Below, piece by piece: positions 1-28,555 of a stretch of DNA of 64,000 bases. Positions within the stretch are counted from its first letter, which is position 1. Every line of letters starts with the position of its first letter. Both the position numbers and the translations under genes were made by a program. The stretch spans positions 22,568 to 86,567 of the forward strand of contig DASXZO010000040.1 in NCBI GenBank assembly GCA_036501845.1, in the 5' to 3' direction. This DNA comes from Acidimicrobiia bacterium. Its GTDB lineage: Bacteria > Actinomycetota > Acidimicrobiia > IMCC26256 > PALSA-610. The notes beneath the pieces were generated by a model that was given only the letters and a program-made list of their open reading frames with translations, searched no databases and had not been told where the DNA came from.

Positions 1-1310
1 AGTTCGAGGCCGAACCAGCTCCGGCCCCGCACCACCACGAACGGGTTGCCGTTGTGCTGGCGCGTGAGCCACCACGACCCCGCCCGCGCCGCGACGCTGC
101 TCGGCGCGACGAACTCGGTGACCACGAGCTTCCACCGACCGTCGACAAAGCCTTGCAACACATGCCGGCGAGCCACGGTGGCGCGCCACGCGCGATTGCG
201 GAGCTTCGCAACGCGGCTCATGTTCTTGCCCTGCGCGTTCGTGTTGAGGCGCAACCGGCTCGCGAGATACAGGTAGCGCCGATCCTCGATGCGCAGGACG
301 CGATGATCGTGATCCGTCGGCGAGCTGACCCCCTTTGAGAGGTCGCGACCCGACAGCGCCGATGGCACGTTGGCGCCCAGCAGACCGAGCAACGTGGGGA
401 GCAGGTCGACCACGCCGACCGCGTCGGTGCCGGCGGCTACCGCCGCCAATCGGGCACGCACCGAGTCGGGCACGTTCGGCGGCAACCACAACGCGCACGG
501 CACGCGTACGAGATCGTCGTGCACGCGCCCACCATGGTGAATGCGCGCGAGCTCCGGTTCGAAGCCTTCGCCGTGATCGGCCAGCACGAGCACGATCGTG
601 CGGTCGAGCGGCGCGGCCTCGATGAGCGCGTCAAGCCCTTCGTGCAAGCGCAGCACAGTCGCGTCGTAGGTGCGGCGCATGCGCGCCTGCTCGTGCACCA
701 CGCCCTTCCACGCGAGCACCCGATAATTGATCGGCGCGAAGTCGTGGCGCTCGGGGAACCACCGTTCGTATGCGCGTTGGGCGTCGGGCAGGTAGTAGTC
801 GTGCGGCAGGTTGCTGTGCAGCATGAGGAAGTAGCTCGCGCCATCGGCCGTGCGCGCGCGCAGGAACTCATCCGCGGCGGCGAACGACTCGGTGGTGTCG
901 GAGATCCAGCGGTAGGGCTCGAAGCCGGTCGACAGCCCCGACGTGCGCTTGAGCACCGAGTTGTTGATGATGGCCGCACGGTGCGTGGTGGGGAACTCCG
1001 GCACCAGGCTCTCGGCCGTGAGCGTGTGCCGGTGCGACCAGTGCTCGTGCACGAACGGATCGGTGGCGGTGAGCAGGCTGGTGGAGGCAGGCAGCGTCCA
1101 CGGCGCGGCGGCATAGCAGCGGTCGAAGCGGATCCACTCGTGGTCGAGCCGGCGCGTCAAGGCCGTGGGGCCGCCCGTGGGCAGCTGCATCGCGAGAGCG
1201 TCGCGGCGCAGCGCGTCGCCCACCAGCACCAACACGCTGAGGGCCTGGTTGGGCGAGTCGGCCGGCAAATCGGATCGCGCAGGCTCGGGCAAATGTGACC
1301 TCGCAGACAT
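1..1310 (-). CDS. sulfatase-like hydrolase/transferase (alkaline-phosphatase superfamily); 3' end runs off the window
   Basis: Absent from the ORF track because no stop lies inside the window. Hand translation of the reverse strand from the ATG (complement of 1308-1310) is uninterrupted down to position 3: MSARSHLPEP..VLVLVGDALRRD..AAPWTLPASTSLLT..YFLMLHSNLPHDYY..VLVLADHGEGFEPE.. This is the sulfatase-family motif layout. The + strand ORF 519..1298 is its antisense shadow. Confidence 0.6.
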   Translation of the reverse strand, partial: MSARSHLPEPARSDLPADSPNQALSVLVLVGDALRRDALAMQLPTGGPTALTRRLDHEWIRFDRCYAAAPWTLPASTSLLTATDPFVHEHWSHRHTLTAESLVPEFPTTHRAAIINNSVLKRTSGLSTGFEPYRWISDTTESFAAADEFLRARTADGASYFLMLHSNLPHDYYLPDAQRAYERWFPERHDFAPINYRVLAWKGVVHEQARMRRTYDATVLRLHEGLDALIEAAPLDRTIVLVLADHGEGFEPELARIHHGGRVHDDLVRVPCALWLPPNVPDSVRARLAAVAAGTDAVGVVDLLPTLLGLLGANVPSALSGRDLSKGVSSPTDHDHRVLRIEDRRYLYLASRLRLNTNAQGKNMSRVAKLRNRAWRATVARRHVLQGFVDGRWKLVVTEFVAPSSVAARAGSWWLTRQHNGNPFVVVRGRSWFGLE

Positions 1311-1420
1311 CGGCCTTCGGGGCCGGGGATTCTACGGACGCATCATGGCCCCGGGCGCGGGTCGTGGATACGATTGCCGCCGTACGCGGGGAGTGCGGCG
1401 GAGCTGGGAGAGGTGCCCCG

Positions 1421-2257
1421 ATGCAAGACGTGTCGGAACGGCTGCATGGGCACTACTTCGACCTCATTCGCCGTCTGCACGTGGCGTTGCGGCCGCGTAC
1501 CTACCTCGAGGTGGGTGTGCACACCGGCAAGTCGCTGGAGCTGGTGGGCCCGGAGACGCAGATCATCGGTATCGACCCCACGCCGGCCGTTCGCACTCGC
1601 ATCAACGACAACGCCCAGCTCTTCTTCGAGACGAGCGACGAATTCTTCGCCAGCCACGACGTGGCCGACCTGCTCGGCGGGCAGCCGATCGACATGGCGT
1701 TCATCGACGGCATGCACCTGTTCGAGTACGCGTTGCGCGACTTCCGCAACATCGAGCATTGGGCCGGCCCCGACTCCGTGGTGATGGTGCACGACTGCTA
1801 CCCGCTCGACGAAGCCAGCTCCGGTCGGGTGCGCGACTCCGACACCTGGACCGGCGACACCTGGAAGCTCGTGCCGTGCCTGCGCGCGCTGCGGCCCGAT
1901 CTCGAGATCACCACGGTGGCGGTGAAGCCGAGCGGGCTCACGCTGATCCGCAACCTCGACCCGAAGAGCACGGTGCTCGACGAGCGCTACGACGAGGCGC
2001 TCGAACGCTTCGGCGCGATCGGGTTCGAGACGATCGACGGCCGCCACGACGAGTTGCTGAAGGTCGTGGGCAACGACTGGGCGTCGATCAGCCCGCACAT
2101 TCCGAGCACGCCGTACGCGTCGGTGGGCACCGCGCCCGCCGCCGGACGGCGCTACCCGCGCTCGTGGAAGGTGCTGCGCCACCAGGCCACCCGCCAGACC
2201 AAGCTGGCCGGCCGCCGCGTGGTCGACAAGGCTCGGGGCGCGCCCGCGCCCGCCTGA
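1421..2257 (+). CDS. class I SAM-dependent methyltransferase (Methyltransf_24/TylF-like)
   Basis: ORF 1295..2257. The internal ATG at 1421 is preceded by GGGAGAGG. Motifs YLEVGVHTGKSLELV and MAFIDGMHLFEYALRDF are typical of this methyltransferase family. Confidence 0.7.
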   Translation: MQDVSERLHGHYFDLIRRLHVALRPRTYLEVGVHTGKSLELVGPETQIIGIDPTPAVRTRINDNAQLFFETSDEFFASHDVADLLGGQPIDMAFIDGMHLFEYALRDFRNIEHWAGPDSVVMVHDCYPLDEASSGRVRDSDTWTGDTWKLVPCLRALRPDLEITTVAVKPSGLTLIRNLDPKSTVLDERYDEALERFGAIGFETIDGRHDELLKVVGNDWASISPHIPSTPYASVGTAPAAGRRYPRSWKVLRHQATRQTKLAGRRVVDKARGAPAPA

Positions 2258-27249: not shown

Positions 27250-27256
27250 CGCGGCG

Positions 27257-28555
27257 CTACAGCGTCTCGCCGTGGAACTCGTGGCCGCGAAGCGCGCCCT
27301 TGGTGTCGAACACGAGACGCGCATGTTCGACGATGAGGTCGGGCCGGAACTCTGGGTGGTCCACGAGCAGCAAGACGAGGTCGGCGCGCGCGAGCTCTTC
27401 GGCGGTGAAGTCGACGAGCGGGCACGGCAAGCCGGGACGGGCCACGTCGGGCACATGGTCGTCGCACGCCACGAGGTCGGCACCCAGGGCGCGCAACCGT
27501 TCTGCCACCACGATCGATGGCGACTCGCGGAAGTCGGAGGTGCCGGCCTTATAGGTGAGGCCGAGCAGCAGGATGCGAGCGCCACGAACGGCCTGTGACT
27601 GCGCGTTGAGCATCGCGGTGACCCGTGCCGCCACGTGGTCGGGCATGTGATCGTTCACGTCGTTGGCGAGTTCCACGAAACGGAACGCGCGTCCCGAACG
27701 GCGCTTCACGCGCCAGCTCAAGTAGGAAGGGTCGACCGGCAGGCAGTGCCCGCCCACACCCGGGCCCGGCGTGAAACGCATGAAACCAAAGGGCTTTGTG
27801 GCTGCGGCGTCGATCGCGCGCCAGATGTCGACACCGAGATCGCTCGCGAACATCGCCAGCTCGTTCACGAGCGCGATGTTCACGTGTCGGAAGGTGTTCT
27901 CGAGCAGCTTCACGAGCTCGGCCTCGGCCGGCGAACCGACTGCGACGGTTTGGTCGACGAGCGAGCCGTAAAACGCCTCGACCGCGGCGAGCGACGCCTC
28001 GTCGATGCCCGCGACCACCTTCGGCGTGTTCACGAAGCCGAACTTCACGTTGCCGGGGTCGATGCGCTCGGGCGAGTAGCCGAGGAAGAAGTCGGCGCCC
28101 GCGCGCAGGCCCGAGCGTTCGAGGATCGGCCGCACCAACTCTTCGGTGGTGCCTGGATACGTGGTGGATTCGAGCACTACGAGCGCGCCGGCGCGCAGGA
28201 CCCTGCTCAGCGCGTCGGCCGCCTGCTCCACGAAGCTCAGGTCGGGCACGCCCTCGCGTAGCGGCGTGGGCACCGAGATCACCGCCACGTCGAAGCCGGC
28301 GAGGTCGCCGAGCTGGTTCGTGGGGTGGTAGCCGTTGGCGAGCGCGCCGCGCAGCTCCTCGGAGGGCACGTCCTCCACATAGGAGTCGCCGGCCCGCAGG
28401 GCCGAGAGGCGCCGCTCGTCGAGCTCGAGGCCCACGGCGGGAAAGCCCACGGCCACGGCCCGCATCGCGACGGGCAGGCCCACGTAGCCCTGGCCGACGA
28501 CCACGATCTTCGCCGAGCGAGTGTCGAGCCGCCGGAGCAGGTCGTCAGGCGTCAC
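27257..28555 (-). CDS. nucleotide-sugar dehydrogenase (UDP-glucose/GDP-mannose dehydrogenase family; WecC/WbpA-like)
   Basis: KIVVVGQGYVGLPVA (Rossmann fold), VVLESTTYPGTTEE, FLGYSPERIDPGN and GVGGHCLPVDPSYL (catalytic Cys). Confidence 0.85.
   Translation of the reverse strand: MTPDDLLRRLDTRSAKIVVVGQGYVGLPVAMRAVAVGFPAVGLELDERRLSALRAGDSYVEDVPSEELRGALANGYHPTNQLGDLAGFDVAVISVPTPLREGVPDLSFVEQAADALSRVLRAGALVVLESTTYPGTTEELVRPILERSGLRAGADFFLGYSPERIDPGNVKFGFVNTPKVVAGIDEASLAAVEAFYGSLVDQTVAVGSPAEAELVKLLENTFRHVNIALVNELAMFASDLGVDIWRAIDAAATKPFGFMRFTPGPGVGGHCLPVDPSYLSWRVKRRSGRAFRFVELANDVNDHMPDHVAARVTAMLNAQSQAVRGARILLLGLTYKAGTSDFRESPSIVVAERLRALGADLVACDDHVPDVARPGLPCPLVDFTAEELARADLVLLLVDHPEFRPDLIVEHARLVFDTKGALRGHEFHGETL

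Follow-up and report, generated by a model that had tools for sequence, protein, structure and literature searches.

Can a member of the actinobacterial class Acidimicrobiia sulfate a glycan of its own cell surface? The question is raised by a gene locus in the left half of a 64,000-nucleotide stretch of an Acidimicrobiia bacterium (assembly GCA_036501845.1, contig DASXZO010000040.1, positions 22,568 to 86,567), and this whole stretch is called the window here. Sulfated polysaccharides are valued biomaterials. Outside the cyanobacteria, to our knowledge, bacteria are generally described as not producing them. An earlier reading of the DNA, made without database searches (the sequence-only reading), had proposed that the locus makes a sulfated exopolysaccharide (EPS). 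In the analysis reported here, two sulfotransferases (ST1 and ST2) were characterized together with their genomic neighbourhoods. That both enzymes sulfate a cell-surface glycan is the best reading of the results, and we regard it as probable. An actinobacterial glycan locus with the capacity for sulfation is supported by the binding motifs for 3'-phosphoadenosine 5'-phosphosulfate (PAPS), by the model of ST1 and by the relatives of the two enzymes, which are located among glycosyltransferase (GT) and PAPS genes.

Sulfotransferases ST1 and ST2

The G+C content of the window is about 70%, and genes were called by the GC content of third codon positions (GC3) and by frame plots. The called genes, about 55 in the window, were scanned with Pfam and NCBIfam. 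The two sulfotransferases were found exactly where the sequence-only reading had placed them, and ST2 is identical to a protein listed by NCBI for an Acidimicrobiia metagenome-assembled genome. They had been described as different sequence types, and no similarity between ST1 and ST2 is detectable by BLASTP, although both belong to PF13469. In ST1, the 5'-phosphosulfate-binding (5'-PSB) motif is HRSGTS and the 3'-phosphate-binding (3'-PB) motif is RHPLEVAAS; the corresponding motifs of ST2 are PRSGTTW and RDGRDVAAS. Among 15-16 diverse members of each family, no variation is seen in the 5'-PSB loop (RSGT[ST]), in the K-[DT]-P motif, in the 3'-PB motif (R..[DE]...S) or at an upstream Glu. The PAPS-binding residues, on which the sequence-only reading had made its proposal depend, are thus intact in the alignments of both ST1 and ST2.

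The AlphaFold2 (AF2) model of ST1 has a mean predicted local distance difference test score (pLDDT) of 93.3. According to the Foldseek search, the top PDB matches of this model are all sulfotransferases, namely 4gox and 4gbm (OLS and CurM) and 3ap1 and 5wrj (the tyrosylprotein sulfotransferases TPST1/2), with a probability of 1.00 each. The nearest solved sequences of ST2 are TPST1/2 (E ~1e-5), followed by CurM, and the similarity between ST2 and TPST is restricted to the PAPS-binding half. The 5'-PSB Arg, the Glu and the Lys of the K-D/T-P motif, which are residues of known role in TPST2, align between these nearest sequences or folds and the enzymes of the window. The identities are 15-20%, however, the acceptor-binding regions do not align, and the genomic context here is that of a glycan, not of a peptide or polyketide. 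No signal peptide or transmembrane (TM) segment is present in ST1 or ST2. Judged from these sequences, ST1 and ST2 look like active PAPS-dependent sulfotransferases of a TPST/CurM-like clade of PF13469.

The start codon of ST1 was assigned to the GTG at 12538, which keeps the conserved first β-strand and fits the family alignment better. The public call of the Joint Genome Institute (JGI), with 291 aa, begins at the ATG at 12493, inside this strand. A protein of a separate locus (L027:8001-9719), 572 aa in total, is a fusion of an ST2 homologue and a second domain, the latter with a faint match to Sulfotransfer_2.

Genomic neighbourhoods of the relatives

Relatives of ST1 and ST2 stand among GT genes in all seven other loci examined, and sulfotransferase-bearing glycan loci recur in Acidimicrobiia. 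In the isolate IMCC26256 (L006) and in L008, the ST2 homologues show 44-47% identity and the ST1 homologues 40-41%. Both loci retain ST2, ST1, three GT2 genes (GT2a, GT2b and GT2c), two GT4 genes (GT4a and GT4b) and the hexapeptide gene together. L008 also retains the gene of a 280-aa protein (p280; L008:11011-11841), directly downstream of its ST2 homologue. In L006 and L008, the ST2 homologue overlaps the stop codon of the upstream GT2 gene, and the two genes are translationally coupled. The export genes differ: where the window has its assembly genes, L006 carries those of a Wzm/Wzt-type ABC transporter, and an ABC ATPase at least is present in L008. In L027 and L028, ST2 homologues lie amid GT2, GT4, hexapeptide and methyltransferase genes, with an ATP-grasp and a pyridoxal-phosphate (PLP)-dependent decarboxylase gene also in L028.

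Two further loci connect the ST1 family with the supply of PAPS. In the cultured Georgenia deserti, a distant ST1 homologue is located next to a GT2 gene, followed by TauE (a putative anion exporter), adenosine 5'-phosphosulfate (APS) kinase, CysD, CysN and CysQ. This group is flanked by a low-molecular-weight tyrosine phosphatase (Wzb) and a Wzz-type bacterial tyrosine kinase (BY-kinase). In L030, an ST1 relative has a GT2 gene on one side and an APS kinase gene on the other. A sulfated glycan is favoured here mainly because the relatives are tied in these ways to glycan genes and PAPS supply.

Gene content and extent of the locus

The features of the locus are listed in Table 1. The classes of genes listed by the sequence-only reading were each recovered by the GC3 calls and the Pfam and NCBIfam scans, at or near the positions given there. 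The locus contains three GT2 and two GT4 genes, four S-adenosylmethionine (SAM) methyltransferases, a hexapeptide acyltransferase, a BY-kinase and a multi-pass membrane protein, in addition to a nucleotide-sugar dehydrogenase, the two PF13469 sulfotransferases and two sulfatase-family proteins of PF00884.

Table 1. Coordinates of the features discussed, in window positions.
Feature	Position	Strand	Basis or remark
Sulfatase-family (alkaline-phosphatase superfamily) protein	3..1310	-	473 aa in full; C-terminus left of window
SAM methyltransferase (Methyltransf_24)	1421..2257	+	Pfam
GT2 glycosyltransferase GT2a	2274..3137	+	Pfam; orthologues of 50-52% identity in L006, L008
GT2 glycosyltransferase GT2b	3186..4061	-	Pfam; orthologues in other loci
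GT4 glycosyltransferase GT4a	4058..5188	-	Pfam; orthologues in other loci
TupA-like ATP-grasp enzyme	5250..6221	+	PF14305, 109 bits
502-aa protein	6212..7720	-	No family match in Pfam/NCBIfam scans
PLP-dependent decarboxylase (MfnA/GAD-like)	7717..9060	-	PF00282; TIGR03812 195 bits, below cutoff
SAM methyltransferase (Methyltransf_24)	9215..10015	+	Pfam
GT2 glycosyltransferase GT2c	10038..10778	+	Pfam; orthologues of 53-56% identity in L006, L008
280-aa protein p280	10775..11617	-	'VDGDAF' (DxD-like) motif; no family assignment
Sulfotransferase ST1, cytoplasmic	11618..12538	-	PF13469, 38.0 bits (cutoff 27)
SAM methyltransferase (Methyltransf_12)	12538..13383	-	Pfam
Hexapeptide-repeat O-acetyltransferase (CysE/EpsC/WcaB-like)	13442..14083	+	Orthologues of 64-83% identity in six loci
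GT4 glycosyltransferase GT4b	14080..15216	+	Pfam; orthologues in other loci
Polysaccharide co-polymerase / BY-kinase	15474..17387	+	Two TM helices; Walker A (GPNEGKST), A' and B
570-aa multi-pass membrane protein	17428..19140	+	Weak PMT_2 match
311-aa membrane protein p311	19145..20080	-	About 10 TM segments; kept with cassette
HPr-kinase-like P-loop kinase	20093..20926	-	TIGR04352, 94 bits (cutoff 200), E 1e-26; PF27840 (precomputed table)
NTP_transf_5 nucleotidyltransferase-fold protein	20923..22041	-	PF14907, 106 bits
97-aa protein p97	22089..22382	-	No Pfam or NCBIfam match, also at permissive E-values
258-aa secreted LPXTG surface protein p258	22363..23139	-	Sequence features and conservation
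Sulfotransferase ST2, cytoplasmic	23233..24282	-	PF13469, 102.2 bits (cutoff 27); also PF00685
Secreted formylglycine-type sulfatase	24335..26242	-	Twin-arginine signal, CQPSRASFITG, SGSH_C, two PKD domains
SAM methyltransferase (Methyltransf_12)	26410..27249	+	Pfam
Nucleotide-sugar 6-dehydrogenase	27257..28555	-	TIGR03026, 379 bits (above cutoff); orthologues of 77-87% identity in five loci
PMT/TMEM260-like GT-C membrane glycosyltransferase	30660..32675	+	Possible peripheral locus member

Over 21 kb, the window and a metagenome contig of JGI (L025) are 99.995% identical, and the left flank (8.6 kb beyond the window) was read from this contig. Moving outward, this flank carries the end of the sulfatase-like gene, a haloacid dehalogenase (HAD) phosphatase, an epimerase/RmlD-like gene, a 201-aa open reading frame (ORF) and an aminoglycoside phosphotransferase (APH)-type kinase; a glyoxalase, small ORFs, purC and an RTX-like gene lie beyond. 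The sequence-only reading had expected the locus to continue to the left. It does so marginally, from the HAD phosphatase to the APH-type kinase, and then gives way to unrelated genes such as purC. The biosynthesis locus, probably for a decorated, acidic cell-surface glycan, looks complete; it begins some 3 kb outside the left end of the window and extends to about 28.6 kb, or possibly to 32.7 kb.

The sequence-only reading had seen no Wzx flippase, initiating phosphoglycosyltransferase or PAPS-synthesis genes, and its suggestion was that these be sought to the left. None was found among the genes scanned in the window, and the search of the left flank for wzx, a priming transferase and cysDNC was also negative over its 8.6 kb. 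A Pfam match to the flippase (Polysacc_synt/MOP), a Bac_transf or Glycos_transf_4 match to a WbaP/WecA-type priming transferase, and cysN, cysD and cysC are all lacking in both regions. The locus is essentially all in view, and the flippase, the priming transferase and PAPS synthesis must be encoded elsewhere.

The dehydrogenase is nearest to UDP-ManNAc and UDP-GlcNAc dehydrogenases. The TupA-like ATP-grasp enzyme is, by analogy, a candidate amidoligase acting on the carboxylate of a uronic acid. In the 502-aa protein, the segment 'TGSKALGAPP' resembles a PLP-lysine motif, and p280, with its DxD-like motif, may be an unrecognized GT-A-like transferase. The component set of the region 5250-9060, together with the HAD phosphatase and the APH-type kinase of L025:4991-8281, lies alongside the sugar dehydrogenase and is amidation-like. 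The ATP-grasp/decarboxylase pair recurs in L028. The capsule of Campylobacter jejuni HS:2 has a module (Cj1438 C-domain, Cj1435 and Cj1437) which amidates glucuronic acid with ethanolamine or serinol (PMC11800379). The TupA-like ATP-grasp enzyme, dehydrogenase, PLP enzyme(s) and HAD phosphatase have counterparts there; the likeness is in the component set only, and the ATP-grasp enzyme is stand-alone here.

Export and assembly

The BY-kinase matches TIGR01007 and TIGR03018, both below their cutoffs. Its C-terminus is a tyrosine cluster of 24 residues in the form (GY)n, encoded by 17070-17141, which is unusually regular (GYGYGYGYGYRYGYSYGGYGYGYG). The assignment as a BY-kinase from these sequence features is convincing. 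The 570-aa membrane protein is the candidate polymerase. Among its seven orthologues, three match PMT_2 (best E 4.9e-7), one matches DIE2_ALG10 and one matches Wzy_C (E 0.0023), and the protein looks GT-C/PMT_2-like in its sequence. The sequence-only reading had described the locus as Wzy-type. Because neither a Wzx flippase nor a priming transferase is found, and because the orthologues of the candidate polymerase match PMT_2 over Wzy_C, this pathway type is not shown and the description is not retained.

Sulfatase-family proteins

The sequence-only reading had counted two sulfatase-family proteins. Both belong to PF00884, but only that of 24335..26242 is a formylglycine sulfatase. Its CQPSRASFITG motif is located at residue 88 of the 635-aa form, and its nearest solved relatives are catabolic carbohydrate sulfatases. 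No gene for a sulfatase maturation enzyme, either the formylglycine-generating enzyme (FGE) or the anaerobic type (anSME), is present in the window. The protein of 3..1310, whose full gene is available in L009 and L025, matches PF00884 with 73 bits over only the C-terminal half of the profile. In the alignment with PDB 4upk, its 'WTLPASTSLLT' corresponds to 'PCGPSRASILT', and T-L-P-A-S stands in place of C-x-P-x-R. The formylglycine Cys is thus replaced by Thr and the Arg by Ser, and the protein is cytoplasmic, without a signal peptide. On this alignment it probably has another activity of the alkaline-phosphatase superfamily, such as a transferase or hydrolase of phospho-substituents. A locus for the catabolic utilization of sulfated glycans was considered and rejected; there is one true sulfatase, and hydrolases, lyases and importers are lacking.

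Kinase and nucleotidyltransferase cassette beside ST2

Between ST2 and the membrane proteins (19145-23139), a cassette overlooked by the sequence-only reading encodes, in order from ST2, p258, p97, the NTP_transf_5 protein, the HPr-kinase-like protein and p311. The protein p258 has a twin-arginine-like signal, a conserved Thr-rich stretch, an Ig-like core, a Ser/Gly-rich stalk, an LPXTG motif (LPFSG), a TM helix and a conserved tail. The gene upstream of p97 codes for a 258-aa LPXTG protein, not for a short precursor. A conserved Tyr in the segment 'FEDVAYA' of p258 was considered as a TPST-type site and rejected, since a probable A-x-A signal-peptidase site has this Tyr at its position -2, so that processing would remove it.

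The p97 family aligns with verified PqqD proteins by hhalign with a probability of 52% and an E-value of 1.4e-4, collinear over 79 columns. Its AF2 model from a 7-sequence alignment has a pLDDT of 68, and Foldseek gave no match in the PDB below E 0.6. The position of p97 matches that of PqqD in distant loci. From the profile comparison, p97 is a probable divergent PqqD-like peptide-binding protein, that is, a recognition element (RRE) of the kind acting on peptides made by ribosomes and modified after translation (RiPPs). The HPr-kinase-like protein carries the P-loop GSGRGKST and is kin to HprK-related kinase A and ScmC, not an equivalog of them; a set of cluster representatives contains 5,504 of its relatives. 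The HprK-like gene of distant phyla comes right after a bona fide PqqD gene, with NTP_transf_5 in one locus and a radical-SAM/SPASM gene in another. A PqqD gene is also present at the left edge of L006.

A genome scan with an alignment of eight HprK sequences returned 13 loci. The block of p258, p97-like, NTP_transf_5, HprK-like and p311 genes is kept in five metagenome-assembled genomes of Acidimicrobiia/Actinomycetota (L012-L016), with 36-73% identity. Across these five loci, the neighbours are also kept, namely the 570-aa protein, the BY-kinase, GT4b, the acetyltransferase and the dehydrogenase. The order ST2-p258-p97-NTP_transf_5-HprK-like is kept at 60-73% identity in L005/L012 and is also found in L013. 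ST2 is missing in three of the five loci; in L014 its slot holds a sulfatase only, and in L015 and L016 the slot is empty. These results indicate that the cassette can do without ST2. The core locus is conserved, and its variable slot appears to hold accessory genes for decoration, namely ST2, the secreted sulfatase and one methyltransferase; sulfation is an accessory, lineage-variable decoration on that core.

[quoted passage not shown] Shared with the cassette are the HPr-kinase homologue, the nucleotidyltransferase of the NTP_transf type and a sulfotransferase close by; the lasso clusters also have a PqqD-type protein, of which p97 is the probable counterpart. Unlike them, the cassette has no cyclase, leader protease, ABC exporter or short precursor, and it lies within a glycan locus, beside an LPXTG protein. 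In the scans for RiPP core enzymes (lasso cyclase and B2 protease), no Asn_synthase or transglutaminase match was found in the locus. A lasso-peptide cluster was accordingly rejected as an explanation, the cyclase and protease being absent.

It is also conceivable, though we consider the chance small, that the conserved core of the locus is a bacterial analogue of proteoglycan assembly. In that case p258, with its Thr-rich and Ser/Gly-rich segments, could be recognized by the PqqD-like protein and phosphorylated on Ser/Thr by the HPr-kinase-like enzyme, and NTP_transf_5 could then glycosylate the phosphate, by analogy with the report on the lasso peptide pseudomycoidin. The modified p258 could serve as the primer or anchor of an acidic, sulfated uronic-acid glycan and so replace the lipid-linked priming transferase, and the GT-C/PMT-like membrane proteins could couple the glycan to the protein outside the cell.

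Flanking genes

Next to the dehydrogenase gene, the region 28656-32675 holds two uncharacterized proteins of 170 and 332 aa upstream of the PMT/TMEM260-like glycosyltransferase. One TM helix is present in the 332-aa protein, which is found again in L015 and L016, there upstream of the dehydrogenase gene. The genes of this region may be part of the locus, and they hint at O-glycosylation of protein. Between the glycan locus and rseP/dxr, two large proteins with RTX calcium-binding repeats (792 and 814 aa) are encoded at 32764-37587. RTX proteins are more typical of Proteobacteria. The pair is missing at the syntenic site of OY970315.1 (L005), and L025:1-263, on the left side of the locus, holds a third RTX-like gene. 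The right half of the window carries the housekeeping genes rseP, dxr, cdsA, frr, pyrH, tsf, rpsB, ffh and ftsY in the usual actinobacterial order, with the gene of a HipA-type toxin kinase (61169-62479) inserted between ffh and ftsY.

Acceptor of the sulfotransferases

Several observations weigh against sulfation of a surface glycan by ST1 and ST2. A sulfated product is predicted here from genes alone, and the acceptors of both enzymes are all inferred from gene neighbourhood. The nearest characterized relatives act on protein tyrosine (TPST) or on carrier-bound intermediates of polyketide synthases (PKS; CurM/OLS), not on sugars, and the best NCBIfam match, which is to the carbohydrate sulfotransferase NoeE, reaches 31 bits against a cutoff of 500. 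We know of no characterized polysaccharide sulfotransferase in the TPST/CurM-like clade. The absence of a flippase, a priming transferase and PAPS-synthesis genes from the window and the 8.6 kb to its left is likewise unfavourable, and ST2 adjoins an LPXTG protein and a kinase/nucleotidyltransferase cassette of the peptide-tailoring type. In a study of a Vibrio capsule, PAPS genes within the cluster were called a hallmark of sulfated polysaccharide synthesis (PMC11641403). This hallmark is lacking here; PAPS-synthesis genes are found beside the ST1-family homologues of Georgenia deserti and L030.

As the cassette lies beside ST2, a protein or peptide acceptor has to be considered. ST2, and possibly ST1, would then be a TPST-like protein or peptide sulfotransferase which, with the cassette, modifies p258 or an unrecognized peptide in the manner of RiPP tailoring. 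The nearness of ST2 to the human tyrosylprotein sulfotransferases among solved sequences speaks for such a role, as does the gene order shared with L005/L012 and L013; distant HprK-like genes follow bona fide PqqD together with NTP_transf_5 or radical-SAM/SPASM genes, and lasso clusters pair an HPr-kinase homologue and a nucleotidyltransferase with a putative sulfotransferase (PMC8498205). The cassette is, however, kept without ST2 in L014, L015 and L016, and conversely the ST2 homologues of L006, L008, L027 and L028 have no HprK-like or NTP_transf_5 gene within ±8-10 kb, those of L006 and L008 being coupled to a GT2 gene instead. Moreover, a lasso cyclase, a B2 protease or another RiPP core enzyme is absent from the locus, and the similarity to TPST does not extend beyond the PAPS-binding half. 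We therefore judge a protein or peptide acceptor to be rather unlikely. A sugar acceptor need not be a polymer exported through the BY-kinase, and ST1 and ST2 may decorate a non-polymeric molecule, either a lipid or a glycoconjugate, for example a sulfoglycolipid or lipo-oligosaccharide. Mycobacterial sulfolipids and rhizobial Nod factors are the molecules for comparison: the best-characterized bacterial carbohydrate sulfotransferases act on such molecules, the only NCBIfam match of ST2 is the Nod-factor enzyme NoeE, and neither a polymerase nor a flippase is recognizable in the locus. That match is, however, far below its cutoff, genes for the synthesis of lipid or acyl chains (PKS, FadD or Pap-type acyltransferase) are not found, and the five GTs and the BY-kinase co-polymerase with its tyrosine cluster point to a polymer, so that this product has a low probability in our view.

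It is also possible to regard the sulfur genes as an unrelated insertion, in which the sulfatase scavenges or degrades foreign glycans, the sulfotransferases are inactive or belong to another pathway, and the polymer is unsulfated. ST2, the sulfatase and a methyltransferase do fill the variable slot between the dehydrogenase gene and p258, which is empty in L015 and L016 and holds the sulfatase alone in L014, and the nearest solved relatives of this sulfatase are catabolic. Against this stand the catalytic and PAPS-binding motifs, which are intact and invariant in both families, and the position of ST1, which lies inside the GT/methyltransferase block and outside the slot. ST1 and ST2 also travel together with the same GT set in distant genomes, and glycoside hydrolases, lyases and sugar importers are absent nearby. 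An insertion of this kind is very improbable.

Proposed pathway

If a surface glycan is sulfated, as we favour, the following scheme can be proposed, with functions assigned by homology and the order of the steps inferred. The nucleotide-sugar 6-dehydrogenase would provide an (N-acetyl)hexuronic acid, and the repeat would be built by the three GT2 and two GT4 enzymes on the cytoplasmic face. ST1 and ST2, soluble enzymes dependent on cytoplasmic PAPS, would put sulfate esters on the repeat in the cytoplasm. Methyl and acetyl groups would come from the four SAM methyltransferases and the hexapeptide O-acetyltransferase, likewise in the cytoplasm, which contains the cofactors, and the uronic acid is possibly amidated by the TupA-like ATP-grasp enzyme with the PLP enzymes. 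Export and assembly would proceed through the BY-kinase co-polymerase and the GT-C-like membrane protein, without a recognizable Wzx/Wzy pair, while the priming transferase, the flippase and PAPS synthesis would be supplied from elsewhere in the genome. Outside the cell, the secreted PKD-domain sulfatase may trim or remodel the polymer or recycle its sulfate.

Comparison with known systems

The results point to an entire actinobacterial class, abundant in soils and waters, in which glycan loci that contain two or three sulfotransferases occur repeatedly. A literature search linking Acidimicrobiia with sulfotransferases found nothing relevant. Cultured relatives allow a direct test, namely IMCC26256 (CP011489), with its orthologous GT and sulfotransferase set, and Georgenia deserti, with an ST1 relative beside a full PAPS pathway. 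If glycan sulfation is true, the TPST/CurM-like clade would be a new source of glycan-sulfating catalysts. The cassette within a BY-kinase glycan locus is a separate lead on protein-glycan coupling in bacteria of Gram-positive lineage. The sequence-only reading had called a locus of this type unusual. The decoration is indeed rare, but such loci recur in Acidimicrobiia, and an EPS cluster of Actinoplanes with two sulfotransferases was published in 2026 (PMC13390465).

That cluster, wps-1 of Actinoplanes missouriensis, is also actinobacterial and combines two sulfotransferases of different families with a methyltransferase and a kinase-like protein; its product is predicted to be a sulfated polysaccharide and is not chemically proven (PMC13390465). 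Wzx, Wzy and Wzz are assigned in wps-1, and its sulfotransferases are of the Gal/GlcNAc type and the heparan-sulfate type, whereas both enzymes here are of the TPST/CurM-like PF13469 type. The host belongs to the class Actinomycetes, against Acidimicrobiia here. In the capsule cluster of Vibrio sp. KMM 8419, sulfotransferase genes are interspersed with glycosyltransferase and acyltransferase genes as in the window, and the capsule is sulfated and O-acylated according to nuclear magnetic resonance (NMR) analysis (PMC11641403). The Vibrio cluster has its own cysN, cysD and cysC and a Kps ABC transporter, whereas the Acidimicrobiia locus has no PAPS genes.

The synechan cluster xss of Synechocystis sp. 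PCC 6803 has eight glycosyltransferases, and its product was chemically shown to be sulfated (PMC8205485). It resembles the locus described here in its two sulfotransferases of distinct subfamilies, its co-polymerase and PAPS synthesis encoded elsewhere. In contrast, xss possesses Wzx, Wzy, a priming transferase and dedicated regulators, none of which is recognizable in the Acidimicrobiia locus. The locus is distinguished from these systems by the TPST/CurM-like clade of its sulfotransferases, by its lack of recognizable Wzx, Wzy, priming-transferase and PAPS genes and by the embedded cassette. Compared with xss in particular, it has a GT-C-like protein, a BY-kinase with a (GY)n tail and the HprK-like cassette, in a host of Gram-positive lineage.

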